DNA from: an uncultured Gammaproteobacteria bacterium
GTDB taxonomy: Bacteria > Pseudomonadota > Gammaproteobacteria > Steroidobacterales > Rariloculaceae
Assembly (NCBI GenBank): GCA_964457725.1
Contig: CAYWGQ010000002.1
Coordinates: 45,023 to 109,022 of the forward strand
DNA: 64,000 nt
Reading direction: 5' to 3'
In this document: positions 16,338 through 51,115 of the stretch, one piece after another
Position numbering within the stretch: position 1 is the stretch's first letter
Layout of the letters: each line of letters opens with the position of its first letter
Notes under the pieces: generated by a model
Databases searched by the model: none
Told to the model about the DNA's origin: nothing
What the model saw: the letters and a program-made list of their open reading frames with translations, nothing else
Position numbers and translations under genes: made by a program

Positions 16338-16350
16338 AATTGGCGACGAC

Positions 16351-20352: not shown

Positions 20353-20410
20353 GACTGCGATGCGCTGCAGACGGTCGCTACACTTGGCCGTGGACCACCG
20401 GAGGCGAACG

Positions 20411-21951: not shown

Positions 21952-22020
21952 GTTTTGTCCGCGGGACGCCGACTTGCGCTCAGGGTCGGTAAAATGGGCG
22001 GGCCAACGGGGACGGAGCCT

Positions 22021-27500: not shown

Positions 27501-28820
27501 ATGAGTGCAATCCGCTCGACGTTCGGGGCGGCGATGTCTTCGCTTGCCTTGTTGGCCATCGGCTCGACCGCCGCGCACGCGCAGCTCGAGCCGCCGCACG
27601 TGCCGGGGCTGCGCGGCGCGCCGTTCTCGGCGCAGAACCCGCCGGCGGACGTTCCGAGCTACGGGAGCGGACCGGAGTGGGACGGCCGGCCCCCGCCCGG
27701 CATCGAGCCGCTGCCGGTCGACGTGTTCACGACGAAGGATTTCTACAAGGACCGGGATCACTGGCTCGACCAGCGGTACTGGCGCTGCAATAGCCCCCGA
27801 CAGATGGCGGACATGCGCAGCGGTGGAGCGGGCACCGGCACGACGGACCCGCGAATCGGCCGCAACCCGCCGACCTCGGCCAGGTGGGGCGACTGCAACG
27901 CGGACTGGCCGCGGGAGAACATCGTGAGCCCGTACCCGTTCGCGACCGCAAAGGAGCACTACGAGGCGCTGCTCGCCGATGCGCGCTCGAAGGGAGGTCC
28001 CACCGTGCACACGTACGAGACGATGCCGAAGTGGGACGGCGTCTACGGCGAGTACGTCCCGGACGGGCGCAGGATTTGGAACTACGGCCGCGCGAACCAG
28101 GTGCCGACCTTCCTTTCGCTGCTGACGCCCGAGTATCAGCAGCGGATGGTGCGGCAGCTCTATCACGAGGGCGTGAACGCGGCGCACCAGTGGTCGGCGT
28201 CTTACTGCTGGCCCGAAGGCTTCATGCGCCAGTGGGCGACGGGGCCGAAGCCGACGCGCATCGTCGTGACGCCGCAGGTGGTGCTGCTGCTCGGCAGCAG
28301 CAGCGGCAACATCATGCGCACCGTGCACCTCGGCCGCGAGTTTCCGCTCGGTCAGGACGTGCCGCAGTGGTACGGCGACACGATCGGCTTCTGGGACGGC
28401 GACGCGCTGATCACCTGGACGACGAACATCCAGGGGTGGACGCAGCACACGACCTGGGAGTTCAGCTACGAGCTCGAAGCGATCGAGATCCTGACGCCGG
28501 TGCATGACGCTTCCGGGAAGCTCCTCGGCCTCGACTGGGAGACGATCCTCTACGACAGCGAGGCGCTCGCGCAGCCGGTACGGATTCTCTGGCACCGTAA
28601 CTATCAGCAGGGCTGGGATACGGCGGGTCGGCTCGGTTTCGCCGAGTGCACGCGCGCGCTCTATCCGATCAACGGCTTCGCGACGCCGGTCGCGCCCGGG
28701 CAGGTGATAGAGTTCCGGGTGCCCGACATGTTCGATCGGCCGTGGGCAAAGATCTGGGAGGAGCACTTCGAGCAGGAGATGGAGCGGCCCGCGGAGGAGC
28801 TCGATCTCGGCTTCAATTGA
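27501..28820 (+). CDS. secreted hypothetical protein, long divergent member of the partner family
   Basis: 439 aa with signal peptide ...TAAHA/QL and RBS AAGGGGGAAA. The core [19 protein letters not shown] aligns with G.S.G.W.GD.L.V.T in 40248, 46557 and 48307. Conserved Cys residues are present. Confidence 0.7.
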
Positions 28821-28883
28821 ACGTCGTGACGGTTTCGATGGTGATCAACGGTCCACACGGACGAGGTAGGGGGTTCTCTGAGC

Positions 28884-29384
28884 ATGGTCAGTAAGAGTCG
28901 ATTTGCCGTCGCGGCTGCGATCGGCTTGACGTCGTTAGCGCTGCTCGCCGGCACGGCGGGCGCGCATCACTCGTACTCGATGTACGACGGCAGCATCTAC
29001 AAGGTCTTCACGGGCGTGATCGTCCGCATCGTGCCGAACGCGGCGCATTTCGAGATCCACTTCGTGCCGCTGAACGAAGAGCGCAACGCGCTCGTCCGCG
29101 ACGAGAACGGCGACCCGCTCGTCTGGGTCGTGCAGATGGAGAGCGCGGCGGAAGCGTTCCGGCACGGCATCACCCGCGAGAGCTTCCCGCAGGGCACGAT
29201 CATGAGCATGGGCGTGCATCCTCGGCGGGACGGGAAGCCGGCCGGCGATCGCGGCGAGTCGGGATTGTTCCAGTGCCCGAAGAGCACGCCGCCCGCGCCG
29301 GGCAAGCACTGCGACTCGGTCGAGGGCAGCATTGCGTTCGGCCCGGGCGTGATCCCGCCGGAAGGACCGGTCGCCAGCCACTGA
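28884..29384 (+). CDS. AHHS small periplasmic protein (DUF6152-like)
   Basis: 166 aa. The signal peptide ends GTAGA and is followed by HHSYSMYD. It aligns with 39840 and 47804, but the NPH position reads NAAH. Confidence 0.7.
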   Translation: MVSKSRFAVAAAIGLTSLALLAGTAGAHHSYSMYDGSIYKVFTGVIVRIVPNAAHFEIHFVPLNEERNALVRDENGDPLVWVVQMESAAEAFRHGITRESFPQGTIMSMGVHPRRDGKPAGDRGESGLFQCPKSTPPAPGKHCDSVEGSIAFGPGVIPPEGPVASH

Positions 29385-36550: not shown

Positions 36551-37686
36551 CCGGCAAATCGCTCGCACGCGGCCTCGTTCTCGTCGTCGACGATACGGCG
36601 GCGTCGCGTTACGTGAACGCGCGGACGCTTCGCTCGGCCGGTTTCGAGACGCTCGAGGCCGGCACCGGGGCCGAGGCGCTCGAGCTCGCGCGGCGGGAGC
36701 TGCCGGAGCTCGTGCTCCTCGACATCAAGCTGCCCGACTTCGACGGGTTCGAAGTCTGCCGTCGGCTGCGCGAGGACCCCGCGACTGCCTCGATGGCCAT
36801 CGTGCAAATCTCCGCGACCTTCGAGTCGGCCGAGTATCAGGTTCGCGGGCTCGAGGGCGGGGCCGACACGTTTCTGCTTTCGCCGGTCGAGCCGACAGTG
36901 CTCGTCGCGAACGTGCGCGCGATGCTGCGTCTCAGGCGGGCGGAGGGAGAGCTGCGCGAGTTCGACAAACGCAAGGACGAGTTTCTGGCAACCGTCGCGC
37001 ACGAGCTGCGCAACCCGCTCGCGCCGCTGCGCTACTGCCTGCACATGCTCGAGGGCTCGCGAGAGCCGCCGCTGCTCGAGCACTGCTTGCCGATCATGCG
37101 GCGGCAGACGGAGCATCTGGTCCGGCTCGTCGACGACCTCACCGACATGAGCCGGATCACACAGAACAAGCTTCGCCTGCGGCTCGAGCGGGTGGATCTC
37201 GCGCAAACCATCGGCGCGGCCATCGAGGCGCAGCGCCCGGAGATCGAGGCGAACGGGCTCGCGCTCGAGGTCGCGTTGCCGAGCGAGCGGCTCGAGGTGC
37301 GCGCCGATCCCGTACGGCTCGCGCAAGTGTTCGGCAACCTGCTCGCGAACGCGGTGAAATACACGCCCTCGGGCGGGCACGTACGGGTCGGTGCACGGCT
37401 CGAGTCGCCCGATCAGGTCGCCGTCATCGTGCAGGACGACGGACGTGGCATCGAGGCCGAGAGCCTCGAGCGCATCTTCGACCTATTCGTGCAAGTCGGC
37501 GACGGCGGCAAGGGGCTCGGTATCGGCCTCGCGCTCGTCGCGCGGCTCGTGTCGATGCACGGCGGGTCGGTCGAGGCGCACAGCGACGGCGTCGGGCGCG
37601 GCAGCACGTTCACGGTGCGCCTTCCGCTCGCTGCGCGGGCGAGCGCAAGCGCTCACGTCTCGAACATCCGCCACTCCGGCATGTAG
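36547..37686 (+). CDS. response-regulator receiver fused to histidine kinase
   Basis: ATG at 36547 overlaps the preceding stop. The receiver contains VLVVDDT...[11 protein letters not shown], the H-box is [11 protein letters not shown], and the ATPase contains [10 protein letters not shown]...DDGRGI...GLGIGLALV. Confidence 0.85.
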
Positions 37687-38687
37687 TTGAGCCCCAGCCT
37701 GACGATCCGCGCGATCAGCGCCTCGTAGTCGATACCGGCGGCGGCGGCGGACTCCGCGAGATCTTCGCCCATCGCGAGCTCCGGGTTCGCGTTCGCCTCG
37801 AGCACGAAGACACGCCCGTCCTCGCGGAGCCGCACGTCCATTCGCGCGAAGCCGCTCATGTAGAGCGCACGGTAGACGCGCTTCGCGAGCTTGGCGAGCC
37901 GCTGCTCGACGTCGGCGGGCAAGTCCGCCGCGCGGCCCGTCGTGATGCCGTGCTTCTCCCGATACTTGCGGTCCCATTTGACCTTGCGGGTCGCGATGCC
38001 GGTCTGCACCTTCGAGAGCGTGCCGAAGTCCATCTCCCATGCGGGCAGGGCCGTCAGCCGCGTGTTGCCGAGCACGCCGATATAGAGCTCGCGGCCGTCG
38101 ATGTACTCCTCGACCAGCGCGTCCGATTGCACGTGCTCGTGGATGAATTCGACGCGCTCTTTCAGGCTGCGCATGTCCTCGACGATCGAGGCCTGCGAGA
38201 TCCCGAGCGACGCCTCCTCGGTGGCCGACTTCACGATCAGCGGAAAGTCGAGCCGCTTCGGCTCGACGAATCGGCGTCCGTAGGGGAAGAGCCGGAAGGC
38301 GGGCGTCGCGATTCGATGCCACGCGAGCATCTGCTTCGTCAGCACCTTGTCGCGGGACATCATCATCCCGCGGGGATTGCAGCCGGTGTAAGGCTGGCGC
38401 ATGAGCTCGAGGTGTGCGACGACGTAGGAGTCGTACGACGCGATCCCCGAGAACTCGTTCAGCAGGTTGAACACGAGGTCCGGCCGCCACTCGGCGAGCG
38501 CTTCGGACAGCACGGAGAGCCGGTCGCCGAGCCCGAGCGGCCGCACGTCGTGGCCGAGGTCCGAAAGCGTCGTCAGCACGTCGTACTCGGTGCGGAACGG
38601 CTCGATTTCCTCGTCCGTCAGGGAGTCGGCGTTGTCCGGCGGCACGAGATCCTCGTGCACGAGCAGCAGTATCTTCAATCGCTTCAT
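37653..38687 (-). CDS. ATP-grasp enzyme, D-alanine--D-alanine ligase-like family
   Basis: 344 aa. Contains FPLIVKSATEEASLGIS, VEEYIDGRELYIGVLG and RMDVRL..DGRVFVLEANANP. Confidence 0.8.
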   Translation of the reverse strand: MKRLKILLLVHEDLVPPDNADSLTDEEIEPFRTEYDVLTTLSDLGHDVRPLGLGDRLSVLSEALAEWRPDLVFNLLNEFSGIASYDSYVVAHLELMRQPYTGCNPRGMMMSRDKVLTKQMLAWHRIATPAFRLFPYGRRFVEPKRLDFPLIVKSATEEASLGISQASIVEDMRSLKERVEFIHEHVQSDALVEEYIDGRELYIGVLGNTRLTALPAWEMDFGTLSKVQTGIATRKVKWDRKYREKHGITTGRAADLPADVEQRLAKLAKRVYRALYMSGFARMDVRLREDGRVFVLEANANPELAMGEDLAESAAAAGIDYEALIARIVRLGLNYMPEWRMFET

Positions 38688-39718
38688 CTGACGAAGTGCT
38701 CCCGATTCCGGCGCAGGAGATCACGAATCAAATCCGCGTGCAGTGCCGCGAGTCGCCGTTCCGCGCTCCGGCCCGTCGGCGGCGCGAGACCGAGCTCGTC
38801 CGCCCGCTGCGCCACGACGCGGAGCACGTGCTCGACGACGTAGGGATGGAAGCCCGCCTGGCGGAGCTGCCGGCGCAGCGCCGGTGCGTGCCCGGCGAGC
38901 GTCCGTTCGCCCCGTGCGCCGGCACGCGGACGGAGAAGTGCGCGAAGGGCCGCGTCCCAGCGCGACTCGACGTCCGCGTAGCGCCGTTGCTTGTGCCGGT
39001 AATGCGCGCGCAGCGTGCGGCGGTTCGTGTGCAGCGGCGCGATCGTCGTGCGGTCCCGGTTCCGAGGCGGGGTGCCTGCGATCTCGCTCATCAGCCGGTC
39101 GACGAGCTCGAGCTTCTCGAGCGCCGGCCAGCCGGCGTATTCCCGCCGCCAGCGCCGCTTCGGCCCGAGCCAGACGGCGAAGGTTTCCGCGAAGTCCTCG
39201 GTCGGGTGGCTTTGCGCGTACCACGAGGGCAGGTGCAGCACGTAGTCGCGGCTCGCCGGGCGGGCGACGTAGACGCGGGGGTAGGGCTGCGAGACGCGCC
39301 CGAACACGCGGCGGAAATCCGCACGCCGGCGCAGCCGGTACGCGGTGTCGAGCGCGTGCCCCGCCTCGTGCCGCAGGAGCTGCATGCGCCAGCGGCCGCT
39401 GCCGCCTTCGGCTTCGCCGATCAGTCGCCGCTCGAGGCGACAGAGGCGCGGCTGAGCCGCGAAGAACGGCACGGCGATGCCGGGCACGCCGTCCGGAGAG
39501 AACCACGAATCGCTGAGCCAGACGTGCGGGCGAAACGCGATGCCGCGGCGCGCGAGCTCGCCGTACAGGCGTTCGACGTCGGCCTCGACGGTGCTGCCGC
39601 GCACCCGCAACCCGAGGTCGCAGAGCCGCAGATCGAGCAGTGCCTCGTCGTCCCAGTCGGCCCAGCGGGGCGAGCGCTGGCCGGGCCGGCGGGCGGCGCT
39701 CGAATGAGAGTTCTTCAT
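38684..39718 (-). CDS. putative zinc metallopeptidase (HExxH)
   Basis: ATG at 39718 gives a 344 aa product. Contains LLRHEAGHALD (HExxH) plus a downstream HPTEDFAETFAVWL. Its stop overlaps the ATP-grasp start by 4 nt. Confidence 0.65.
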   Translation of the reverse strand: MKNSHSSAARRPGQRSPRWADWDDEALLDLRLCDLGLRVRGSTVEADVERLYGELARRGIAFRPHVWLSDSWFSPDGVPGIAVPFFAAQPRLCRLERRLIGEAEGGSGRWRMQLLRHEAGHALDTAYRLRRRADFRRVFGRVSQPYPRVYVARPASRDYVLHLPSWYAQSHPTEDFAETFAVWLGPKRRWRREYAGWPALEKLELVDRLMSEIAGTPPRNRDRTTIAPLHTNRRTLRAHYRHKQRRYADVESRWDAALRALLRPRAGARGERTLAGHAPALRRQLRQAGFHPYVVEHVLRVVAQRADELGLAPPTGRSAERRLAALHADLIRDLLRRNREHFVR

Positions 39719-39839
39719 GCGAGCGCGATCGTAACGTATCGAGGGGCGTAACCGTCCCGTGCCCAGCACTGCAGCGGGACGCGGGACCATAGTAGAATCG
39801 GTTCGTCCGCAGGCCGGCAGCCCAAGGGGGGAGCAGCAC

Positions 39840-40238
39840 ATGGGCAGACGCACTCAGGTCGCCGCAGCACTGGTTCTCGCGCTCGCAGGCGCATCCGCCG
39901 CCGCGCATCACTCGTTCACGGCCACTTACTTCGAGGACCGGACGATCGAGATCGAGGGGAAGCTGCTCCAGTTCATGTTCCGCAATCCGCACTCGTTCGT
40001 GCACGTCGAGGCGCCGGACGAGAACGGGCAGCCACAGCGCTGGGCCGTCGAGTGGGGCGGGGCCGGGCAGCTGTCGAGCCAGGGGGTCACGAACCAGACG
40101 CTGCGCCCCGGCGACATCGTGACGATCACCGGCAATCCGGGCCGCGATCCGAAAGATCATCGGATCCGCATGCTCTATCTGAAGCGCAATTCCGACGGCT
40201 TCGACTGGGGCCGGCGCCCCGGCGAGACCTTCAACTAG
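39840..40238 (+). CDS. AHHS small periplasmic protein (DUF6152-like)
   Basis: ATG at 39840 follows AAGGGGGGAG. The 132 aa product has a signal peptide ending SAAA, then HHSFTATYF, RNPHSFVHVE, WAVEWGG and GDIVTITG. Confidence 0.75.
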   Translation: MGRRTQVAAALVLALAGASAAAHHSFTATYFEDRTIEIEGKLLQFMFRNPHSFVHVEAPDENGQPQRWAVEWGGAGQLSSQGVTNQTLRPGDIVTITGNPGRDPKDHRIRMLYLKRNSDGFDWGRRPGETFN

Positions 40239-40247
40239 CGCTTCGCC

Positions 40248-41096
40248 GTGCGTGCGCTCCTTCTCGCCGCGTCGCTAGCGCTCGCGGCCGCGCCTGCAAC
40301 CGGGCAATTGAGCCTCGTCGGGGAGTGGGCGGGCCGCTACCACGAGGATCAGGCGGACCGCATCCCGGGCGACGTCCAGGGCGATTTCACCGGGGTGCCG
40401 CTGAACGACGCGGCGCGGCGCTACGCCGAGGCGTTCGACGTGACCCGCGTCGCCGTGCTCGAGCACCAGTGCCAGCCGTACAACGTCGCGCACATCTACC
40501 GGGGGCCGCTGCAGTTCCGGATCTGGGAAGAGAAGGATCCGGCGACGCAGGAGATCGTCGCCTACCGCCAGTATCTCGGCACTTACCAGCAGTGGCGCAC
40601 GATCTGGATGGACGGCCGCCCGCATCCGCCGGACTACGTCCCGCACACGTTCATGGGCTTCTCCACCGGCCGCTGGGACGGCGACATCCTCACCGTGCAC
40701 ACCACGCACATCAAGAAGGAGTTCTACCGGCGCAGCGGCATCCCGAGCAGCGACCAGACGACGATGGTCGAGCACTACATTCGCCACGGCGACCTGCTGT
40801 CGCACGTGATGATCATCACGGACCCGGTATATCTGACGGAGCCGTACGTGAACAGCCAGGAGTTCGTGCTGATGGAGCGCGGCAACCAGAACTGGCTCTA
40901 CAACTGCGAGTACGTGATGGAAGTGCCGATGCCGAAGCACGACGTGCCGCACTACCTGCCCGGTCAGAATCCGTTCATCGAGGATTTCGCGCAGAAGTTC
41001 GGGCTGCCGTTCGAGGCGGTGTTCGGCGGTGCGGAGACGCTCTATCCGGAGTATCAGCCGCGGCTCGAGGCGCTGATGAACGGCGGCGGACGATGA
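40248..41096 (+). CDS. secreted hypothetical protein, partner family
   Basis: A GTG start lies 9 nt after the 39840 gene stop. The 282 aa product has a signal peptide and contains VPLNDAARRYAEAFD, DGRPHPP, GFSTGRWDGDILTVHTT, MVEHY, ITDPVYLTEPY and the Cys pair HQC/YNC. Confidence 0.75.
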   Translation: MRALLLAASLALAAAPATGQLSLVGEWAGRYHEDQADRIPGDVQGDFTGVPLNDAARRYAEAFDVTRVAVLEHQCQPYNVAHIYRGPLQFRIWEEKDPATQEIVAYRQYLGTYQQWRTIWMDGRPHPPDYVPHTFMGFSTGRWDGDILTVHTTHIKKEFYRRSGIPSSDQTTMVEHYIRHGDLLSHVMIITDPVYLTEPYVNSQEFVLMERGNQNWLYNCEYVMEVPMPKHDVPHYLPGQNPFIEDFAQKFGLPFEAVFGGAETLYPEYQPRLEALMNGGGR

Positions 41097-42016
41097 CGCG
41101 CGCGACTCGGGTATCCGCCGCGGTCGCCGCGCTGCTCGCCGCGGTCGCGCTCGATGCGAACGCGCAGCGCGGCGGGATCGACACCTACCACGTGCAAGGC
41201 AACGTCTACATGCTGATCGGGGCGGACGCGAACGTCGCCGTCCAGATCGGCGAGGAAGGCATCCTCGTCGTCGACACGGGCGGCGCGGCGACGCGCGACG
41301 CCGTTCTCGCAGCGATCCGCACCCTGTCGGACAAGCCGATTCGCTGGATCGTGAACACCCACGCGGACGTCGACCACACCGGCGGCAACGAGACCATTTC
41401 CCAGGCGGGCATGACCGTCAACGGCAACCCTGCCGCGATCATCGCGCACGAGCGCGTGCTCACGCGGATGTCCGAGGAAGACCGGCCGATCACCGAGTGG
41501 CCGCTAAACACGTTCTTCGAGTCGCAGCGCGACTTCAGCTTCAACGGCGAGGCGATCTTCCTGTATCACGTGCCGGACGCGCACACGGACGGCGACGTGA
41601 TCGTGTACTTCCGCGGCTCCGACGTGCTCGTCGCGGGCGATCTCTTCGTCACGACCACGTATCCGGTGATCGATCGCGACTCGGGCGGCGGCGTGCAGGG
41701 TTTCATCGACGGGCTGAACCTGATGCTCGACATCGCGGTGCCGCGCTATCTCCAGGAAGGCGGGACGTACGTGATCCCCGGGCACGGGAGGCTCGGCGAC
41801 GAGGCGGACATCGTCGAGTATCGGGACATGGTCGTGATCATCCGCGATCGCGTCCGGGACATGATCGATCGCGGGATGACGCTCGAGCAGGTGCTCGCGG
41901 CGCGTCCGTCGCTCGACTACGACACGCGCTACGGCAGCGGTCGCGGCGAGTGGACGACGCGGATGTTCGTCGAGGCCGTGTACCGCGATCTGGCGGCGAA
42001 AGGAGGCAGTGAGTGA
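41093..42016 (+). CDS. MBL-fold metallo-hydrolase (secreted)
   Basis: ATG at 41093 overlaps the preceding stop. Has a signal peptide. Contains NTHADVDHTGGN at the HxHxDH position, HTDGDVIVYF and IPGHG. It is a paralog of 21025..21951. Confidence 0.8.
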   Translation: MTRATRVSAAVAALLAAVALDANAQRGGIDTYHVQGNVYMLIGADANVAVQIGEEGILVVDTGGAATRDAVLAAIRTLSDKPIRWIVNTHADVDHTGGNETISQAGMTVNGNPAAIIAHERVLTRMSEEDRPITEWPLNTFFESQRDFSFNGEAIFLYHVPDAHTDGDVIVYFRGSDVLVAGDLFVTTTYPVIDRDSGGGVQGFIDGLNLMLDIAVPRYLQEGGTYVIPGHGRLGDEADIVEYRDMVVIIRDRVRDMIDRGMTLEQVLAARPSLDYDTRYGSGRGEWTTRMFVEAVYRDLAAKGGSE

Positions 42017-42870
42017 GCGTCCGGAAGATCGCGGCCAGCGGCCGCCTCGCGGCCGGGATCGGCGCGGCGGTGCTCGCCTCGGCCGCGTTCGCGCAGAACG
42101 AGAGTGCGCAAGAGGCCGCGCGGATCGACCTGACGGGCTACTGGGTTTCCGTCGTCAGCGAGGACTGGCGCCACCGGATGGCGACGCCGCGCCGCGGCGA
42201 TTACGAGAGCGTGCCGCTGAACGACGAAGGCCGTCGCGTCGCCGATCAATGGGATCTCGAGCGCGACAACGCGGCGGGCCTCGAGTGCAAGGCGTTCGGC
42301 GTCGGCGGCTTGATGCGGCAGCCCGGCCGGTTGCGCATCGAGTGGGACGACCCGAATACGCTCCGGATCGATTTCGACGCCGGCACGCAGACGCGGCTGC
42401 TGCACTTCGATCCCGGCGTCGCGCCGCCCGCGGAGAAGACGTGGCAAGGGCATTCCGTCGCCGAATGGGTCGGGCCCCCGCGGCCGCGCGGCCAAGCGCC
42501 GGTCCGCGCGCAGATCGGCAACAGCGCCGGGCCGATCGCGCCGGGCGGCGGCGGGCGAGGGCAGCGCGGCGGGCCGCCGCCGCCGGCCTCGGTCAACGAG
42601 GGCGGCGCGCTGAAGGTCGTTACGACCGGCTTCCGCGAAGGCTACCTGCGGAAGAACGGCGTGCCGTACAGCGAATCCGCCGTGATCACGGAGTATTTCC
42701 ATCGGCTGCCGCAGCATCCGAACGGCGACACGTGGCTGCACGTCGTCACGATCGTCGAGGACCCGCTATACCTGAACGAGCCCTTTTACACGAGCACGCA
42801 TTTCAAGCTCGAGCCGAGCGGCGCACGGTGGAATCCGACTCCGTGCCGTACCGCGCCGCCGCCGCCGTAA
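42013..42870 (+). CDS. secreted hypothetical protein, divergent partner-family member with Gly/Pro-rich insert
   Basis: A GTG at 42013 (RBS AGGAGG) overlaps the MBL stop. Contains LTGYWVSVVSEDW, VPLNDEGRRVADQWD, LKVVTTGF, ITEYF and VEDPLYLNEPFY. It carries an insert, PGGGGRGQRGGPPPP. Confidence 0.7.
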   Translation: MSVRKIAASGRLAAGIGAAVLASAAFAQNESAQEAARIDLTGYWVSVVSEDWRHRMATPRRGDYESVPLNDEGRRVADQWDLERDNAAGLECKAFGVGGLMRQPGRLRIEWDDPNTLRIDFDAGTQTRLLHFDPGVAPPAEKTWQGHSVAEWVGPPRPRGQAPVRAQIGNSAGPIAPGGGGRGQRGGPPPPASVNEGGALKVVTTGFREGYLRKNGVPYSESAVITEYFHRLPQHPNGDTWLHVVTIVEDPLYLNEPFYTSTHFKLEPSGARWNPTPCRTAPPPP

Positions 42871-42921
42871 CCCTTCGCCGCGAGCGCTCGAGGCCGCAGG
42901 CGTTTGCGCGGCGCAGGCGGT

Positions 42922-45342
42922 TCAGCGGGGTGCGAACGGGGCGCGAACCGCTTCGCGAAGCCGCTCGAGGCGCACCGGCGATCCGGTGAACAGGGTTTCG
43001 GGCAGCGCCGGCGGGCGCGGCGCGAGCGCCGCGAAGATCTCGGCGGCCTCATAGCGGTTCAGCCCTTCGCCGGCGAGGTACTGGAGGCGCAAGTTGCGGT
43101 CCTGGTTCAGTGCCGCACCCCGGAGCACGGGCCCGAGCTCGGACGGGCCGGCCGCGTACGTCCCGAGCAGCGCGGTCGCCGATTCGAAGCCGACCTCCCG
43201 GAGCGACCGGGCGACCTCGGCGTAGCGCACGCTCTGCAGCAGCCGCTCGAGCCGGTCGACGTCGAGCGCTTCGCCGCCGGCCCGGCCGAGCAGCACGGCG
43301 TCGTAGCCCGCGCCGTGCACGCGATTCGCGAACAGCGCGCCGTCCGGAAAGACCTCGAAGAACGTCGCGAGCTCGCTCCGCACGGCTTCCTCGGTCGTCT
43401 CGTAGAGCTGCACGAACACGGTCACCGCGCCGCCCGGCCGGAGCCGCGAGCGCACCAGCCGCCAGAACTCGACCGTGTAGAGCGCGGCCGCCCCCTTCAC
43501 CCACGGATCGAGCGGATCGGAGGTGATCACGTCGAACGTCTCGCGCGACGTCTCGAGCAGGTGGCGGCCGTCGTCGATCACGATCCGCACTTTCGGATTC
43601 GCCGTCACGTCGAAGCTCTCGGCCGCGAAGTGCGGCGCGACGCCCCGTACCACGAGCGGCTCGAGCTCCGCGACGACGACCTGCTCGACCGCTGGATCGA
43701 TCGCGACGGCGCCCGCCGTGACGCCCGCGCCGAGCCCGATCACGAGGGCCGAGCGCGGCTCCTCGGCCGCGAGTGTCGCGAGGTGACCGAGCATCCGTTG
43801 CAGCCGCATGTCCTGCGGGTAGCTCGACGCCTGCGCCTTCCCGGCGCTGTGGAAGCTGCGCCGGCCGTCGGCGTCTTCCGTCACTGCGACGGAGGCGCTT
43901 CTGCCTTCGCCTGCGAACAGCACGCGTACGCCCTCGGCGCGCGTCGGCAGGAAGCGCCCGTAGGCGATCAGCTCGCCGGGAACGGCCGGCACGGCCGCCG
44001 CGAACGCGGCCGCTACGGCAACGGCGCCGGCGGCGAGCGCGACGCGCCGCCGCGGCGGCTCGGCTCGGTAGCCGGGCCGTGCGAGCAGCATGGCGCCAGC
44101 CGCGGCGGCGGCTGCGATCATCAGCTGCTGCGTGAGCTGGCTGCCGGCGAGCGCGACGAGCACGAATCCGGCGGCGAGCGCACCCGCGATCGCGCCGAGC
44201 GTGTTCGCGGCGTACACGTGCCCGGTCAGCCGCGCCGGATCGCCGCCCGGTGCGGCTGCCGCGGCGATCGCGAGCGGCACGCTCGCGCCCCAAGCCACCG
44301 CGGCGGGCAGCACGGCGAACGCGATCCGCATCAGATCGATCGGCAGCGCCGCGGCCGCGACCGCCGGTAGCGTCGGATCGATCGGCCAGTAGGGCAGGAG
44401 GCGCGCGATCGCGAATGCGGCCCACGCGATCGCCGCGCACGCGAGCAGCTGACAGACGCCGAGCGCTGCACCCGGGTCGAACCGCCGGCCGCACGCGGCG
44501 CCGAGCGCGGCGCCCGCGCCGAGGCCCGCGAGGACGACGGCGAGGATCAGCGCGAACGTGTAGACCGTGCCGCCGAGGAGCAGCGACAGTTGCCGCGTCC
44601 AGACGACCTCGGCCGCGAGCGCGGTCATGCCCGAGAGCGCGATCGCGACGTAGAGCGTCCCGCGCTGCGCCGTATGGCGCTCGGCCCGAGCGACGGCAGC
44701 CGCGGCTCGCGTCGGCGCAGTCGCCTGCCGCCGGCTCGATCGGCCGAGCGCGAACGCGGCCACGGCCGCTCCGCCGTTGAGCGCGGCAGCGGCGAGCGTC
44801 GCGACGGTCGTGTCGTAGACGCGCAGCAGATGGAAGCCCGCGACGATGCAGCCGAGCACGCCGCCGACGAGGTTCGCGGCGTAGAGCGCGCCGAGACCGG
44901 CCGCGCCGCGCGGCGTCGTGTCGAGCACTCGGCCGAGCGCGGGCAGCGTCGCGCCCATCAGCACGGTAGGCGGCAGCAGGCACAGTGCGGCGAGGACGGC
45001 GCGCGCGGCGAGGCCGCCGTTACCGCCCCAAGCCGCATAGGCGCTCGCGAGCGCCGGCAGCCCGAGCAGCACCGCCAGGCCTGCGAGACCGGTCGCGATC
45101 TCGAGCGTCGCGTAGACGCGGAGCGGATCGAGCCGCGCGGGCAAGACGCGCCAGCACGCGAGGCTCCCGATGCAGAGGCCCCCCATGAACGTCGCGAGCA
45201 GCACCCCGAGCGACGGCGCGGACGCGCCGATCACGAGCGCGAGGAGCTGGAACCAGACGAGCTGATAGACGAGCGCCGCCGCGCCGCTCGCGAGCGCGAG
45301 CGCCGCAAGCGCCGGCGCGGATGGAGGCTGGGCGTTCGTCAT
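42922..45342 (-). CDS. fused polytopic-membrane / spermidine synthase-like protein
   Basis: ATG at 45342 (alternative start 45360). About 480 aa of hydrophobic repeats are followed by LVIGLGAGVTAG...FDVITSDPLDPW...GGAVTVFVQ (aminopropyltransferase fold). The track ORF extension to 46413 is rejected. Confidence 0.8.
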   Translation of the reverse strand: MTNAQPPSAPALAALALASGAAALVYQLVWFQLLALVIGASAPSLGVLLATFMGGLCIGSLACWRVLPARLDPLRVYATLEIATGLAGLAVLLGLPALASAYAAWGGNGGLAARAVLAALCLLPPTVLMGATLPALGRVLDTTPRGAAGLGALYAANLVGGVLGCIVAGFHLLRVYDTTVATLAAAALNGGAAVAAFALGRSSRRQATAPTRAAAAVARAERHTAQRGTLYVAIALSGMTALAAEVVWTRQLSLLLGGTVYTFALILAVVLAGLGAGAALGAACGRRFDPGAALGVCQLLACAAIAWAAFAIARLLPYWPIDPTLPAVAAAALPIDLMRIAFAVLPAAVAWGASVPLAIAAAAAPGGDPARLTGHVYAANTLGAIAGALAAGFVLVALAGSQLTQQLMIAAAAAAGAMLLARPGYRAEPPRRRVALAAGAVAVAAAFAAAVPAVPGELIAYGRFLPTRAEGVRVLFAGEGRSASVAVTEDADGRRSFHSAGKAQASSYPQDMRLQRMLGHLATLAAEEPRSALVIGLGAGVTAGAVAIDPAVEQVVVAELEPLVVRGVAPHFAAESFDVTANPKVRIVIDDGRHLLETSRETFDVITSDPLDPWVKGAAALYTVEFWRLVRSRLRPGGAVTVFVQLYETTEEAVRSELATFFEVFPDGALFANRVHGAGYDAVLLGRAGGEALDVDRLERLLQSVRYAEVARSLREVGFESATALLGTYAAGPSELGPVLRGAALNQDRNLRLQYLAGEGLNRYEAAEIFAALAPRPPALPETLFTGSPVRLERLREAVRAPFAPR

Positions 45343-45471
45343 GGAAGGTCGCGCGAGCATAGGCGAAAGGTTCGGGCCGGGGCTAGCAGGCGGACCGGGT
45401 CCCGCCGACGCGGGCAATGCGTGGCACCGAAGTTGCAACGACGTCGCCCCCGGGACGAAGCGGAGCGAGCG

Positions 45472-46434
45472 ATGAGCAGCGCAACCGAGGTCGATCACGG
45501 CCGGATGGCGACCCGGCCGAAGGAGCTGACGAAGGACGCTTGGCTCGACATCGGCAGCCGCGTGAGGCGAGGGGTCGGCCGGGACAACCTGTCGATGATG
45601 GCGGCCGGCGCGGCGTTCTACGGCCTGTTCGCGATCTTCCCCGCGATCGCCGCGTTGGTGTCGCTGTACGGGCTGTTCACGGACGCAGCGACCGTCACGG
45701 AGCACATGCGCGCGCTCGAGGGGGTGCTGCCCGAGGAGGCACGCGGTGTCCTCGACCAGCAGCTGCGGCGCGTCAGCGGCAGCGCCGATCAGGCGCTCGG
45801 TTTCGGCGTGATCGCCGGGTTGCTGATCGCGATCTGGAGCTCCACGCGCGGCATAAAGGCGCTGATGACCGCGCTGAACGTCGTCTACAACGAGGAGGAG
45901 AAGCGCGGCTTCATCGCGCTCAACGCGACGGCGTTGCTCCTGACCGCGACGGTGCTGGTCGTCGTAGCGGTGTCGCTCGCGGCGATCGCGCTCGTGCCGG
46001 TCATCGTCGCGCAGCTGCCTCTGCCGCCGATCGCGGAGACGCTGGCACGGCTGCTGCGCTGGCCCCTGCTCGCGCTGGTCTCGCTGCTGTCGCTCGCGAT
46101 GGTCTACCGCTACGGTCCGAGCCGGACGCGCGCCCAGTGGCGGTGGGTGACGTGGGGCGCCGCCGTTGCGACGTTGCTCTGGCTGATCGTGTCGGGGCTC
46201 TTCTCGTGGTATGTGTCGAGCTTCGGCAGCTACAACGAGACGTACGGCTCGGTCGCCGCGATCGCCGTGCTGATGATGTGGCTGTGGCTGTCGGCGTTCG
46301 TGATGCTGATCGGCGGCGAGATCAACGCGGAGATGGAGCATCAGACGCGGCGCGACACGACGATCGGCCGTCCCGAGCCGCTCGGCGAGCGCGGCGCCTA
46401 CGTCGCCGACCACGTCGGCGACCCGCGCCGCTGA
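45472..46434 (+). CDS. YihY/BrkB-family membrane protein
   Basis: 320 aa. Contains MMAAGAAFYGLFAIFPAIAAL, IWSSTRGIKALMTALN and YGSVAAIAVLMMWLWLSAFVMLIGGEINAE. Confidence 0.8.
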   Translation: MSSATEVDHGRMATRPKELTKDAWLDIGSRVRRGVGRDNLSMMAAGAAFYGLFAIFPAIAALVSLYGLFTDAATVTEHMRALEGVLPEEARGVLDQQLRRVSGSADQALGFGVIAGLLIAIWSSTRGIKALMTALNVVYNEEEKRGFIALNATALLLTATVLVVVAVSLAAIALVPVIVAQLPLPPIAETLARLLRWPLLALVSLLSLAMVYRYGPSRTRAQWRWVTWGAAVATLLWLIVSGLFSWYVSSFGSYNETYGSVAAIAVLMMWLWLSAFVMLIGGEINAEMEHQTRRDTTIGRPEPLGERGAYVADHVGDPRR

Positions 46435-46556
46435 GGGTCACATCCGCTCCTGCGACGACGATCGGGCGATGGAGAAAGTCGCGGCGATCGCCTATTCTTG
46501 CGACAACGCCTTGGGGGTCGGTGCCCGCGTCCGCGCGGCGCCGTGAGGAGTCGACG

Positions 46557-47690
46557 ATGGCGAAAGCTGCACTACCGGCAGGCGCGCTCGCGGCCGCCGC
46601 TCTGATGGTTTGCTCCACGGCGGGCTTCGCGCAGGCGCCGCGGGCCGACGGCGCGGCCGAGCCGCCGCAATCGCGCCGCGTCCCCGCGGAGACCCTCGCA
46701 GCGAAGGTCCGCGACCCTTCCTGGCGTGCCCCGCGAACCTCGTGGGGGCATCCGAGCTTCGAGGGCGTCTGGAGCACGGACGACATGCGGAGCGTGCCGC
46801 TGAATCGACCGGAGGAGCTCGGCGACAACGCGAGCCTGACGCCCGAGCAGTTCGCCGAGCGCGCGCGGCGCGACGAAGGCGCGCTCGATCGGGCCGTGAA
46901 CACCGAGACGTTTCTCAGGAACGAGTGGGGCGTGCGCACGTTCGGCTACAGCTCGCTCGTGATCGATCCGCCGAACGGCCGCATCCCGCCGATGACCGAG
47001 GCCGGCCGGGCGCGAGCGGCGAACCGCGACCGCGGGACGTTCGGCCCGGGTCCGTTCGACACGTTCGAGGATTTCACGCTCTACGACCGCTGCATCACGC
47101 GCGGGGTCATCGGCTCGAAGCTGCCGGTGATCTACGGCAACGGCCTGCGAATCGTGCAGACGCCGGACTCCGTCGCGATCAGCTACGAGATGATCCACGA
47201 CACACGGATCATCCCCGTCGACGGGCGGCCGCACATGAGCGGCGACATTCGGCAGTACCTCGGGAACCCGCGCGGTCGCTGGGAGGGCGATACGCTCGTC
47301 GTCGAGACCGTGAATTTTACCGATCAGACGAGCATCGGCCCGAACGGCAACGGCACCCGGCACAGTGCGCAGATGAAGCTGACCGAGCGCTTCACGCGCA
47401 TCGATCCGGAGATGATCGAATACGTCGCGACCGTCGACGACCCCGTCGCCTACACGGCGCCTTTCACGTTGCGGCTCATGCTCACGACGCAGCCCGGCTA
47501 TCAGCTCTACGAGTACTCCTGCCACGAGGGCAACGGCGCGGTGAAGAATTCGCTCTCCGGCGAGCGAGCGTGGGAGCGCGAGGCGGCCGAAGCGGCCGCG
47601 AAGGGCCTGCCGCCGCCGCAAAGGGCCGGGAGCGTCTATGGCCCGCCCGAGGAGGGCGCCGAGGTGTTCAACATCAACCGGGGCGAGTGA
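46557..47690 (+). CDS. secreted hypothetical protein, partner family
   Basis: ATG at 46557 follows GAGGAG. The 377 aa product has a signal peptide. Contains FEGVWS, DRCITRG, DGRPHM, GRWEGDTLVVETVNF, LTERF, VDDPVAYTAPF and YSCHEGN. Confidence 0.75.
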   Translation: MAKAALPAGALAAAALMVCSTAGFAQAPRADGAAEPPQSRRVPAETLAAKVRDPSWRAPRTSWGHPSFEGVWSTDDMRSVPLNRPEELGDNASLTPEQFAERARRDEGALDRAVNTETFLRNEWGVRTFGYSSLVIDPPNGRIPPMTEAGRARAANRDRGTFGPGPFDTFEDFTLYDRCITRGVIGSKLPVIYGNGLRIVQTPDSVAISYEMIHDTRIIPVDGRPHMSGDIRQYLGNPRGRWEGDTLVVETVNFTDQTSIGPNGNGTRHSAQMKLTERFTRIDPEMIEYVATVDDPVAYTAPFTLRLMLTTQPGYQLYEYSCHEGNGAVKNSLSGERAWEREAAEAAAKGLPPPQRAGSVYGPPEEGAEVFNINRGE

Positions 47691-47803: not shown

Positions 47804-48217
47804 TCACTCCGCGCTCGGGGCTCCTGCGCCCTCCGAGCCCATGAACAGGCTCGATCCGTCCGGCAGCCGGATCTCCCGGCCGTTGGCCCGGAACGAGCGA
47901 TCACGGGCCTGGTAGCCCTCGACGGTCACTCGAATGCCGGCCGGCACCGAGTTGCGGTTCCAGCCGCGGCGAATCAGCGCGTTCGGCGCGCCGCCCTCGA
48001 CCGCCCACTGTTGCTTCTCGCCGCTCTCGGTCGTCACTTCGATGTGCAGCCAGGAGTGCGGGTTGCTGAACTCCATTCGCGTGACGACGCCCTCGAGCAC
48101 GATCGGCCGGTTGATGTCGAACTCGGCGGCGAACGAATGATGCGCGTCGACCGGAGCGGCTGCCCATCCTGCGGCGGCGGCCGCGACGGCGCTCAGGATT
48201 TTCACTCGCATGGACAC
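47804..48217 (-). CDS. AHHS small periplasmic protein (DUF6152-like)
   Basis: 137 aa. The signal peptide ends PVDA and is followed by HHSFAAEFD, SNPHSWLHIE, WAVEGG and GIRVTVEG. Confidence 0.75.
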   Translation of the reverse strand: MSMRVKILSAVAAAAAGWAAAPVDAHHSFAAEFDINRPIVLEGVVTRMEFSNPHSWLHIEVTTESGEKQQWAVEGGAPNALIRRGWNRNSVPAGIRVTVEGYQARDRSFRANGREIRLPDGSSLFMGSEGAGAPSAE

Positions 48218-48306
48218 ATCTCCCGTGTGGTACGACGGCCGGAGACCATTCTAGTGGCCCGCGGCTGAACGGCGTCTGAATTATTGTACAGCGGCCTCGC
48301 TTCGGC

Positions 48307-49122
48307 TCATTCGAGCGGTTGCGGCGGTTCCTTCAGGAACTCTCCATAGAGCAGCGGCTCGGCGAACTCGACGCACTTGAACTCGAGCAGCTCCGCGTTC
48401 GGCTCGATGCGCCGATAGAGCGGCAGGCTGATCGTCCACGGCCGCTCGAACACGACGGGATCGTCGATCGTCGCCTCGTACTGGATATGGTCCGGCCCGA
48501 TCAGCGTGAACCGCTCCGTGACGGTCATCTGGTTGCTGTGATAATTGCCGGAACGGTCGAGCCACGTGCGGTCGTCGTTCGCGATCGTCTCGACGACCAG
48601 CGTGTCCCCGTCCCAGCTGCCGTTCGACCAGCCCATCCACAAGTCCACCGGCACCTCGTCTAGCGTGCGCACATCCTCGAAGTGCACCGCGCGGTTGGCG
48701 CTCGCGTACTCGTAGACGAACAGGATGTCGCCGTCGCCTTGGACGATCTGGAACGGATACGGCATGTACGTCGCGCGCGGGATGCCGGGCAGGTAGCAGG
48801 CCGCTTCAGGATCGCTCTTCGGCCAGCCGGCGCGATTCTCGTCGCGTTTCGCGAGCGCCTCCGGCTTGTACGGGATCTTGCCGCCGACGACGACGCTCTG
48901 TCCCGCGGGAATCGCGCCGATTGCGCCGAGCTGCCAGATCTTCTCGAACCGCGAAGCCGAGTGCGCTTCGAGGTTCCAGTGCGCGCTGCCCGCCGCCTGC
49001 CAGATGCCGTTGAAGTTCGGTCGGCCGTTGATTCGCTCCGGACGCGAGGTCTGCGCCTCCGCGTGAGTGACCGCGAGACCTGCGACGAGCGCCGCGACCG
49101 TGCCAAACACCGCTGTTCGCAT
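48307..49122 (-). CDS. secreted hypothetical protein, partner family
   Basis: ATG at 49122 follows GGGAG. The 271 aa product has a signal peptide. Contains FNGIWQ, AACYLPG, GWSNGSWDGDTLVVETI, VTERF, IDDPVVFERPW and FKCVE. Confidence 0.75.
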   Translation of the reverse strand: MRTAVFGTVAALVAGLAVTHAEAQTSRPERINGRPNFNGIWQAAGSAHWNLEAHSASRFEKIWQLGAIGAIPAGQSVVVGGKIPYKPEALAKRDENRAGWPKSDPEAACYLPGIPRATYMPYPFQIVQGDGDILFVYEYASANRAVHFEDVRTLDEVPVDLWMGWSNGSWDGDTLVVETIANDDRTWLDRSGNYHSNQMTVTERFTLIGPDHIQYEATIDDPVVFERPWTISLPLYRRIEPNAELLEFKCVEFAEPLLYGEFLKEPPQPLE

Positions 49123-49387
49123 CTCCCGATCCCCCTCGACACCGTATACGTCGTCGGCTTGAACGCGGGCCGGCGGCCTCGCCGGCACGGCCGGAATTCT
49201 ACGTGCGCCCGGAGCCCGAGCACCATCTTTTCGGAGTCGACGCGAGGCGCGCCGCGTTCTTCGAAGCTCTTCTATGTGAACTCCTTCGTCGTGTCAAACG
49301 CCGCTTCGCTCGAGCAGACGCGGCCCGTGATTTCGTTTAGCCTTGAGAAACGCCGGTGCAGGCCGGCACTCCGGGGGGAGGACTCAG

Positions 49388-51115
49388 ATGCGCCGTTCAT
49401 CGATCGCAGCCGCCGTCGCGGTCGCCGCGGCCGCCGCGTGCTCGCTCACGGCGGCGGCGGAACGCGAGCTCGCGCCCGTCACCGACGAGATGCTTCGCAA
49501 TCCCGATCCGGGCGACTGGCTGATGTGGCGCCGCACGCTGGACGGCACGGGCTTCAGCCCGCTCGAGCAGATCAACGCCCGGAACGTCGGCACGCTCGAG
49601 CTCGTCTGGAGCGCGCCGCTCGGCCCGGGAATACAGGAGGCGACGCCGCTCGTCTACGCCGGCACGATGTACGTGCCGAATCACGGCGATTACGTGCAGG
49701 CGTTCGATGCGGCGACAGGGGAGCTTCTCTGGGAGTATCGCCGGCAGTATCGCGAGGGGGGCAACGCCGGCACGAACCGCAATCTCGCGATCTGGGGCAC
49801 GACGCTGATCGACGCGGGCTCGGACAACACGATGTACGCGATCGACGCCCGCACCGGCGAGCTCGTCTGGGAGACGCCGGTCCACGATGCGGCGCTCCGT
49901 GCCCGCGCGACCTCGGGGCCGATCGTCGCCGACGGCAAGGTCATCACCGGCCGGCAGTGCCAACCGGACGCGACGCACGAGGGTTGCGTGATCACCGCGC
50001 ACGACGCGAAGAGCGGCCGCGAGCTCTGGCGCACGCGGACGATTCCGCGCCCCGGCGAGCCGGGCGACGAGACCTGGGGCGATGTGCCGCTCGCGCAACG
50101 CTGGCACGTCGGCACCTGGATGGTGCCGAGCTACGACCCAGACCTCGAGCGGATCTTCATCGGCACGTCCGTGACGATCCCTGCGCCGAAGTTCATCCTC
50201 GGCGGCGTCGACAAGTCTCACCTGTACCACAACTCGACGCTCGCCCTCGACGCCGCGAGCGGCCGGATCGTCTGGCATTACCAGCACTTGATCGATCACT
50301 GGGATCTCGACCACCCGTACGAGCGGCTGCTGGTCGAGACGGCGGTCGCGCCGGATCCCGACGAGGTGCCGTGGATCAACCCGAACGTGCGCCGCGGCGA
50401 GGTTCGCAAGGTCATCACCGGGATTCCGGGCAAGACCGGCATCGTCTACACGCTCGATCGCGAGACGGGAGAGTTTCTCTGGGCGCGGCCGACCGTCATG
50501 CAGAACGTCGTCAAGTCGATCGGCGGGGACGGTAAGGTCGAGGTCGATCCCGAGCGCATCTTCACGCGCGCCGATCAGGAAATCTTCGTGTGCCCGAGCG
50601 CGAACGGCGGCAAGAACTGGCCCGCCGGCGCCTACAGCCCGGTGACGAAGGCGATGTACTTCCCGTTGCAGAACCTTTGCATGAGCGCACGGACACGGAC
50701 CGATCAGCGCGATCCGAGCCTCGTCTACGGCGTGACGCTGGATGCCGAGCTCGCGCCAGGAACCGACAACGTCGGCGCGGTGTGGGCGATCTCGGTCGAG
50801 ACGGGCAGGACGCTTTGGAAGCACGAGCAGCGCGCCGGGACCTTGTCGCTCGTCGCGACCGGCGGCGGCCTGGTCTTCGGCGGCGACGCCGCTGGCCGCT
50901 TCAGGGCGTTCGATGCCGCGACCGGCGAGGTCCTGTGGGATACGGACCTCGGCTCCCCGGTCAGCGGCTTCCCGATCAGCTTCGCCGTCGACGGCAAGCA
51001 GTACGTCGCCGTCACGACCGGGCCGTCGCTCGCCGCCATGACGTCGCGACGGCTCGCGCCCGAGCTCGCGCCGGATGCGGGCGGTGCGAGCGTGTTCGTG
51101 TTCTCGCTACGGTAG
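49388..51115 (+). CDS. PQQ-dependent dehydrogenase (quinoprotein alcohol dehydrogenase family)
   Basis: ATG at 49388 follows GGGGGGAGG. The 575 aa product has a signal peptide. Contains DWLMWRRTLDGTGFSPL, repeated W-motif propeller blades and CPSANGGKNW. There is no C-terminal cytochrome domain and no vicinal Cys-Cys. Confidence 0.85.
   Translation: MRRSSIAAAVAVAAAAACSLTAAAERELAPVTDEMLRNPDPGDWLMWRRTLDGTGFSPLEQINARNVGTLELVWSAPLGPGIQEATPLVYAGTMYVPNHGDYVQAFDAATGELLWEYRRQYREGGNAGTNRNLAIWGTTLIDAGSDNTMYAIDARTGELVWETPVHDAALRARATSGPIVADGKVITGRQCQPDATHEGCVITAHDAKSGRELWRTRTIPRPGEPGDETWGDVPLAQRWHVGTWMVPSYDPDLERIFIGTSVTIPAPKFILGGVDKSHLYHNSTLALDAASGRIVWHYQHLIDHWDLDHPYERLLVETAVAPDPDEVPWINPNVRRGEVRKVITGIPGKTGIVYTLDRETGEFLWARPTVMQNVVKSIGGDGKVEVDPERIFTRADQEIFVCPSANGGKNWPAGAYSPVTKAMYFPLQNLCMSARTRTDQRDPSLVYGVTLDAELAPGTDNVGAVWAISVETGRTLWKHEQRAGTLSLVATGGGLVFGGDAAGRFRAFDAATGEVLWDTDLGSPVSGFPISFAVDGKQYVAVTTGPSLAAMTSRRLAPELAPDAGGASVFVFSLR

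Follow-up and report, generated by a model that had tools for sequence, protein, structure and literature searches.

Four tightly packed genes for a proposed periplasmic complex of DUF6152, calycin-like barrel and metallo-beta-lactamase-fold proteins

In a stretch of 64,000 nucleotides from an uncultured gammaproteobacterium of the Rariloculaceae (contig CAYWGQ010000002.1, positions 45,023 to 109,022 of the forward strand; hereafter the window), four genes follow one another almost without interruption between positions 39840 and 42870. They are referred to here as G1 to G4 in order of transcription. G1 encodes a small protein of the Pfam family DUF6152 (PF19649), G3 a protein with a metallo-beta-lactamase (MBL) fold, and G2 and G4 two members of one further family, which we call the partner family. 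What might such an assortment of proteins do together? The explanation that we favor, with a probability of roughly 0.6 for the whole of it, is that G1-G4 form one operon and that their exported products assemble into a periplasmic hetero-oligomeric metalloprotein complex. The folds concerned are known ones, while for the combination of four subunits we could find no characterized counterpart.

Gene layout, conservation and natural fusions

All four genes are read from the forward strand. G1 (39840-40238, 132 residues) starts with ATG and ends with a TAG stop at 40238, and a gap of 9 nt separates it from G2 (40248-41096, 282 residues, GTG start). G2 and G3 (41093-42016, 307 residues, ATG start) have the ATGA at 41093-41096 in common as stop and start, as do G3 and G4 (42013-42870, 285 residues, GTG start) the GTGA at 42013-42016. 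An earlier note on this DNA had given the same outer coordinates, gap and overlaps, all of which are borne out by reading the sequence. The ATG of G1 at 39840 is preceded by AAGGGGGGAG, with the Shine-Dalgarno-like GGGGGGAG read at 39826-39833 on the forward strand, and the GTG start of G4 is preceded by AAAGGAGG. The G1, G2 and G4 frames have a GC content at third codon positions of 0.82-0.91 and more GC at first than at second positions, as fits real genes in a window of ~70% GC, which argues that these frames are coding.

The same note had assigned signal peptides to all four products. Signal-peptide-like N-termini were indeed found, each comprising an n-region with K/R, a hydrophobic core of mean Kyte-Doolittle value 2.3-2.9 over 10 residues and an Ala-x-Ala-type site, as called by a crude script and not by a dedicated predictor such as SignalP. 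The predicted cleavage would leave His-His-Ser at the mature N-terminus of G1 and Gln at those of G2, G3 and G4.

A -10-like hexamer, TAGAAT, at 39793-39798 on the forward strand, i.e., 41 nt upstream of the G1 start, is the likely promoter element of the operon. It emerged only when the orthologous upstream regions of G1 were compared among 23 gammaproteobacterial loci, 19 of which carry a single TA(G/C)AAT 12-82 nt upstream of the G1 start despite differing upstream genes. Over both strands of the window (128 kb) there are four copies of TAGAAT, as compared with 3.2 expected by chance, and all four stand just upstream of DUF6152 or partner genes (16335-16340 and 39793-39798 on the forward strand, 48248-48253 and 49196-49201 on the reverse strand). 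This placement, in the window and in the related loci, supports a promoter in front of G1, and it suggests that the paralogous modules have similar promoters and are possibly co-regulated. A consensus scan of 39500-43200 yielded no full sigma-70 site and no promoter-like or terminator-like element, and an Rfam search of the same interval, including the leader, yielded no riboswitch or other RNA element. We infer that G1-G4 form a single operon with one transcript.

The arrangement recurs well beyond this genome. In a search for G2 homologs, 8,000 candidates were scored and 3,558 of them had E<=1e-3; the best 120 were 78-90% identical, and those with names came from uncultured Gammaproteobacteria. 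Scanning one genome per GTDB species then gave 76 loci with a G2 ortholog (L004-L079 of the extracted loci, which are labeled L001-L079). All 76 genomes are metagenome-assembled genomes (MAGs) of uncultured organisms, and many of the isolate names indicate soil surveys. The identity of G2 is 50-89% within the Gammaproteobacteria (mostly about 80-89%) and mostly about 60-80% in the Acidobacteriota (Vicinamibacterales, Terriglobia and Solibacteraceae), with one further locus in the Rokubacteria.

Synteny was mapped by tblastn and hidden Markov models (HMMs) in 74 loci from these three phyla. In 73 of the 74, the immediate upstream neighbor of the MBL gene is a partner gene, and in 66 of the 67 loci followed by at least 1 kb of sequence a second partner gene is its immediate downstream neighbor. 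DUF6152 is found upstream, on the same strand and within 1.6 kb, in all 24 gammaproteobacterial loci (adjacent in 21), as well as upstream in 28 of the 40 Acidobacteriota loci and in the only one from Rokubacteria. The earlier note had named a lack of conserved synteny as grounds for refutation; such synteny is clearly present, with the order G2-G3-G4 kept across three phyla and G1 upstream in most loci. At the G3-G4 junction, the 4-nt overlap is retained in 16 of 58 loci, with a further 13 lying between -1 and +2 nt. Since the flanking genes vary among loci, this conservation cannot be put down just to common ancestry of the chromosome segment.

In the Vicinamibacterales the cluster is expanded to partner-DUF6152-partner-G2-G3, followed either by G4 or by a second, divergent pair, G2'-G3', with identities of about 42-50% for G2' and 44-55% for G3'. 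The second pair occurs in L046-L048, L054-L056, L059, L060 and L066 (e.g., L048:6752-8625), where it stands in place of G4, except in L046 and L060, where it comes after G4; the result is tandem partner-MBL units.

Natural fusions tie the components together more directly. G2 and G3 share a single open reading frame in ~32 Acidobacteriota loci: G2 runs to about residue 271, and a Pro/Ala-rich linker then connects it to a G3 that lacks the signal peptide and begins near residue 27. A signal-peptide-like start of its own was called by the crude script in 28 of 63 G3 orthologs, in agreement with the unfused cases. A second type of fusion, between DUF6152 and partner, is present in the window itself at 16369-17382 on the forward strand, with DUF6152 scoring 45.8 bits and the partner HMM matching the C-terminal half. 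More than 100 homologs match this protein over its full length, with identities of 42-79%, and some lie on contigs of 4-5 Mb. In two large contigs the fused gene is alone among unrelated neighbors, which gave no clue to its function; given that it stands alone there, the DUF6152-partner pair is a self-sufficient unit. The AlphaFold2 model of the 16369-17382 product is one compact two-domain unit (predicted local distance difference test score, pLDDT, 91.9; predicted template modeling score, pTM, 0.86), and a pTM this high for a two-domain chain suggests a fixed arrangement of the domains. When the two domains were compared with the PDB using Foldseek, the N-terminal one matched the oligonucleotide/oligosaccharide-binding (OB)-fold anticodon-binding domain of LysRS (89 columns, root-mean-square deviation 4.2 Å), and the C-terminal one matched CRABP/FABP barrels.

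Amongst the top 150 representatives of the partner family, 112 are single-domain proteins, 20 are partner-partner, 11 partner-MBL and five DUF6152-partner fusions, and one is a partner-DUF6152 fusion. A Pfam scan of 108 of them revealed single fusions to a c-type cytochrome, a pyrroloquinoline quinone (PQQ) propeller and an FGE-sulfatase domain, with no Pfam family covering the partner domain itself. Between them, the fusions connect the four components in pairs. One further candidate, P0086, was rejected as a DUF6152-G2 fusion, its middle section being an out-of-frame translation of the DUF6152 C-terminus, i.e., a frameshift artefact. Taken together, the synteny and the fusions in other genomes show that the arrangement is more than chance.

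Folds and putative metal sites of the four products

G1 is a clear member of DUF6152 (77.3 bits, E=1e-21, gathering cut-off 27). Ala22-His23-His24-Ser25 and His51, the last within an N-P-H motif, are invariant in the G1 orthologs and in the paralogs in the window, and His23, His24, Ser25 and His51 are the only invariant polar residues across both sets. An OB-fold is predicted for G1, and the DUF6152 domain of the fused paralog likewise models as an OB-type barrel. DUF6152 has no known function and no solved structure; profile searches with the DUF6152-partner alignment against all PDB sequences returned noise, and a literature search for DUF6152 or PF19649 found no paper that mentions either. 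Nor is the obligate pairing with the partner domain part of the PF19649 family description as returned.

The Ala-His-His-Ser at the predicted cleavage site of G1 and His51 are compatible with the pattern of histidine-brace copper proteins of the LPMO, CopC and YcnI type, in which the amine and imidazole of the mature N-terminal His bind copper together with a second His. A literature search combining histidine brace and OB-fold found no papers. We consider it probable that G1 binds a metal through its processed N-terminus. In size and fold it resembles the small exported OB-fold proteins of the CusF and BOF/YgiW type (about 110-130 residues). In CusF, barrel residues (His, Met and Trp) hold the metal, whereas the signature of DUF6152 consists of the N-terminal His-His and N-P-H. 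Membership of G1 in the CusF family was rejected, with an hhalign probability of 3.9%.

The relationship between G2 and G4 was evident by tblastn (E=1e-17, 26% identity), with ~19 shared invariant positions including two Cys, which presumably form a disulfide. G4 had been described in the earlier note as a divergent member of the partner family with a Gly/Pro-rich insert, and on both counts this proved correct. The partner HMM scores G4 at 276 bits, and the insert occupies residues 153-203 (42469-42621, forward strand) with the core PGGGGRGQRGGP. G4 orthologs from each of the three phyla carry it, at a median of 50 residues and with PGGGG(R/Q)GxRGGP as the conserved core; it is a hallmark of the G4 orthologs and does not represent low-complexity drift.

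Neither G2 nor G4 has a match in Pfam or NCBIfam, and a profile search with the G2 alignment against all PDB sequences gave only noise. The partner family is nevertheless large: a profile made from the five clear copies in the window retrieved 17,184 clusters at 50% identity with E<=1e-3 and 9,597 with E<=1e-10. Its near-invariant positions, in G2 numbering, are C75, R117, G137, S139, W143, G164, E175, D192-P193, P199 and C220; otherwise the barrel is extremely variable, with a mean column identity of 10%. In G2 orthologs the two Cys are invariant and seven His are kept in at least 66 of 73 sequences, while G4 has no His conserved in this way.

G2 is predicted to be a calycin/FABP-like barrel with a conserved C-terminal extension. 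In its model (pLDDT 69) the barrel core is confident and the conserved C-terminal 60 residues are not. The best Foldseek matches were the barrels of CRBP1, FABP (FABP4) and avidins, with TM-scores of 0.55-0.61 normalized to the target and E>=1.6e-3. These all belong to the calycin superfamily, i.e., FABP/CRBP, lipocalins and avidins, and the partner domain opens with a G-x-W motif (VGEW in G2, TGYW in G4). It differs from the calycins, however, in having no sequence-level Pfam match, in being twice the size of FABP, and in its conserved Cys pair, N- and C-terminal extensions and, in G4, the Gly-rich insert. Given the invariant His of DUF6152 and the extreme variability of the barrel, the contrast between the two is what one would expect if a module for catalysis or for a cofactor were combined with one for specificity.

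G3 had been put forward as an MBL-fold hydrolase. The fold is supported by PF00753, at 74.4 bits over a gathering cut-off of 22.7, which places G3 in the superfamily, and by sequence its closest PDB entry is BcII (E=2e-9); "hydrolase" is an unproven assumption. At the position of the canonical H-x-H-x-D-H motif of binuclear MBL proteins, residues 88-95 of G3 read N-T-H-A-D-V-D-H (motif 2, T-H-A-D-V-D-H, residues 89-95, 41357-41377, forward strand), so that the canonical motif is not present. Motifs 3 to 5 are recognizable as AHTDGD, AGDLF and PGHG, with H164, D183 and H231 all in place.

To put this motif into context, 63 orthologs extracted from the loci were aligned with the protein from the window, giving 64 sequences. 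At site 1, the first His of HxHxDH (position 90) is His in 17 of 64, and the position of the second (92) holds Asp in 28 sequences and His in 12; position 3 of the motif is thus variable among orthologs. Of the other positions, D94 of motif 2 is kept in 54, H95 in all 64, the family-specific H159 in 63, the bridging D183 of motif 4 in 60, H231 of motif 5 in 62 and H164 of motif 3 in 40. The full HxHxDH is found in only ~12 of 64 sequences, which come from both phyla. Because the site 1 positions drift in this way, the canonical three-His site is dispensable in the G3 orthologous group, and the Asp-His...His half-site is what the alignment retains. The letters H-A-D-V-D-H reported earlier at the zinc-motif position are therefore accurate, although they are one state of a drifting motif and not a family signature.

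Several known MBL types invite comparison. The mono-zinc B2 enzymes (CphA type) and the B3 "Asp-His-His" site 2 resemble G3 in that G3 likewise keeps an Asp-His...His site 2, with site 1 degenerate. B2 beta-lactamases use site 2 only. G3 nevertheless scores just 35 bits against the B2 model (cut-off 240) and has Asp, not Cys, at position 221. The alkylsulfatase SdsA1 combines an exported MBL catalytic domain with a separate domain for the hydrophobic moiety, as is proposed here for G3 and the barrels, and is a weak sequence match to G3 (E=2.9e-5, over the N-terminal 80 residues only). In SdsA1, however, the accessory domain is SCP2-like and part of the same chain, and the binuclear zinc site is canonical. 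A di-iron MBL of the flavodiiron/ODP type was considered and rejected, with PF19583 at 23.8 bits below its cut-off of 27.2 and Asp instead of Glu at motif position 3.

Paralogous modules and neighboring genes

HMMs built in the course of this work located four DUF6152 domains in the window, at 16366, 28884, 39849 and 47816 (the last on the reverse strand), and six partner domains, i.e., those of G2 and G4, 46554-47624, 48313-49044 (reverse strand), the C-terminal half of the 16369-17382 fusion and a distant one in 27501-28820. All four DUF6152 copies adjoin a partner domain or are fused with one. Besides the fusion, these copies comprise a forward-strand module at 27501-29384, in which the distant partner-like gene (27501-28820; partner match at 28197-28595, independent E-value 1.5e-13) is followed by a DUF6152 gene (28884-29384, 38.8 bits), and a reverse-strand module at 47804-49122, in which a partner gene (48307-49122, 291 bits with the partner HMM) is followed by a DUF6152 gene (47804-48217, 113.6 bits). 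An additional partner gene lies at 46557-47690 on the forward strand (268 bits). The 439-residue product of 27501-28820 has a 49%-identical homolog directly downstream of G4 in L068 (7870-9081).

The window contains two MBL genes. The paralog of G3, at 21025-21951 on the forward strand (tblastn against G3, E=1.6e-17; PF00753, 54.5 bits), carries the motif H-W-H-P-E-Q and is without partner genes. This paralog had been noticed earlier, and tblastn and the HMMs show it and the further DUF6152 and partner copies to be real. A cytochrome c'-like gene had also been placed beside the paralog: the open reading frame at 20390-20917 (forward strand) before it does encode a single C-terminal CEGCH heme-binding motif, and its product, for which Pfam gives no match, is compatible with a class II (cytochrome c'-like) cytochrome. 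Following the paralog, 21955-24429 (forward strand) encodes a PSD/PSCyt (DUF1592/1588/1585/1587/1595) cytochrome-domain protein.

Amongst the other neighbors, a PQQ dehydrogenase gene (49343-51115) and the partner/DUF6152 pair at 47804-49122 are arranged divergently. Convergent downstream of G4 is a gene for a large membrane protein with a spermine/spermidine-synthase domain (42922-45843, reverse strand), which occupies the same place in most gammaproteobacterial loci (~20 others), is co-directional upstream of G1 in L020 (714-3089) and L023 (2-403), and is absent near the Acidobacteriota clusters. Divergent upstream of the cluster in the window is an ATP-grasp (D-Ala-D-Ala-ligase-like) gene (37653-39718, reverse strand); such a gene also adjoins the cluster in three loci from other phyla (L058:7653-9265, L070:10647-10775 and L079:10198-10756), and its Peptidase_Mx partner gene is found in the window and in L058.

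The proposed complex and its alternatives

The mechanism that we propose would run as follows. The four exported products would assemble in the periplasm, G3 with its MBL fold and G2 with its calycin-like barrel forming an obligate pair, and G4 serving as a second barrel subunit of the same family as G2, marked by its conserved Gly-rich loop. G1 would be a small OB-fold subunit in which cleavage exposes the invariant His-His N-terminus; these two residues and the third invariant His most likely bind metal, and G1 may deliver that metal or add a further metal center. G3, retaining half of the binuclear site (Asp94-His95, His231, the bridging Asp183 and the family-specific His159), would probably work with one metal at site 2 or draw ligands from its partners. 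The barrel subunits would probably hold or present a small molecule, likely amphipathic or hydrophobic. The analysis itself establishes that the gene set is conserved and translationally coupled, that its parts are fused pairwise in nature, and that the products have export signals, the folds described and characteristic patterns of conserved His. The parts of the proposal built on this differ in strength: a physical complex of the four proteins is highly probable in view of gene order and fusions, and catalysis at the half-site of G3 on a molecule bound by the barrels is a tentative suggestion that we regard as rather doubtful.

Several points weigh against the proposal. The loci were collected through homology to G2, so that "partner upstream of MBL" is partly true by construction; for this reason, it is the presence of G3, G4 and G1 that is informative. 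About 12 of the 40 Acidobacteriota loci have no DUF6152 within 1.6 kb upstream, and 11 of these have none in ~5 kb of upstream sequence, from which it follows that DUF6152 is not essential to the G2-G3-G4 core. The structural model of G2 is of mediocre quality (pLDDT 69), and the known folds match it only weakly (target-normalized TM about 0.55-0.6). Finally, the drift of the metal ligands is just as compatible with a scaffolding role for G3, without catalysis.

The alternative that survives best, though we judge it unlikely, makes the complex an accessory of periplasmic PQQ/cytochrome-linked oxidation, which would process the product of a PQQ dehydrogenase, e.g., by hydrolyzing a lactone, ester or thioester. 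In this view the barrels would serve as carriers for the substrate or the product, which would be hydrophobic. The best NCBIfam match of G3 is indeed TIGR04559, "quinoprotein relay system zinc metallohydrolase 2" (97.3 bits, E=1e-27), and the SoxH-like/quinoprotein relay branch (TIGR04558/TIGR04559), the best-scoring named family, has an MBL fold and is periplasmic, like G3. The TIGR04559 family is found in the ped cluster of Pseudomonas, and its own function is not established (PMC12997753). G2 is also immediately preceded, in L027 (3159-4887) and L033 (3126-4868), by a PQQ dehydrogenase gene in the same orientation, another is divergent from the paralogous pair in the window as described above, and the 108 diverse partner proteins include the one PQQ-propeller and the one c-type cytochrome fusion. 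L027 and L033 are Vicinamibacterales loci without DUF6152, and their G3 has the canonical HxHxDH. The TIGR04559 score, however, is far under the cut-off of 280 bits, and G3 further departs from that branch in its variable motif 2 (HADVDH in the window) and in having a calycin-like subunit fused to it or paired with it. Moreover, no more than 2-3 of 74 loci have a PQQ dehydrogenase next to the cluster, no PQQ gene adjoins the focal operon, and the fused DUF6152-partner genes stand alone in unrelated contexts.

A role in periplasmic metal trafficking or buffering, and not in enzymatic catalysis, appears quite improbable. G1 would then be a CusF-like metallochaperone, G2 a ZinT-like protein and G3 a scaffold or client. 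CusF is a periplasmic OB-fold metallochaperone for copper and silver, and ZinT a lipocalin-like zinc binder. The predicted periplasmic OB-fold of G1, its invariant His-His N-terminus and third His, the seven conserved His of G2 and the relaxed catalytic-site ligands of G3 would all suit such a role. Yet there is no detectable homology to CusF by hhalign and no Pfam match to ZinT or CusF, neither a transporter nor a metal-responsive regulator accompanies the operon, and four DUF6152 and six very divergent partner domains in one window look like diversification for different ligands and not like metal homeostasis.

We would give still less credence to the reading in which DUF6152 and partner are a new and very widespread two-part periplasmic metalloenzyme, docked on G3, with the catalytic site at the His-His and a hypervariable barrel for specificity. 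A histidine-brace-like center on the OB-fold would here be the catalytic metal site, and the first metal site of G3 would be dispensable, possibly completed or replaced in trans by histidines of the partner.

That G3 is a class B beta-lactamase conferring antibiotic resistance, with incidental neighbors, was rejected as highly implausible: its closest structures by sequence are the B1 enzymes BcII and VIM, and it weakly matches the B1, B2 and B3 models of NCBIfam, but the scores (50.1, 35.4 and 27.3 bits) are well below the cut-offs (200, 240 and 240), the three-His zinc site that B1 and B3 enzymes need is not conserved, and the fusion with G2 and the invariant synteny mean that the neighbors are not incidental. 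Mere adjacency of the four genes without any functional link is effectively refuted by the G2-G3 fusions and by a gene order kept across three phyla, to which the recurring start/stop overlaps and three kinds of natural fusion may be added.

For both DUF6152 and the partner family, the operon and the fusions provide a first concrete hypothesis, i.e., a periplasmic metalloprotein complex with an atypical MBL-fold protein. With its site 1 drifting and its site 2 half conserved, G3 is also a useful natural experiment in the loss or alteration of the binuclear center of an MBL fold. An identity of 60-89% for G2 between Gammaproteobacteria and Acidobacteriota implies unusually strong constraint, and the carriers, all uncultured and largely soil MAGs, point to an unrecognized periplasmic activity in dominant soil lineages.

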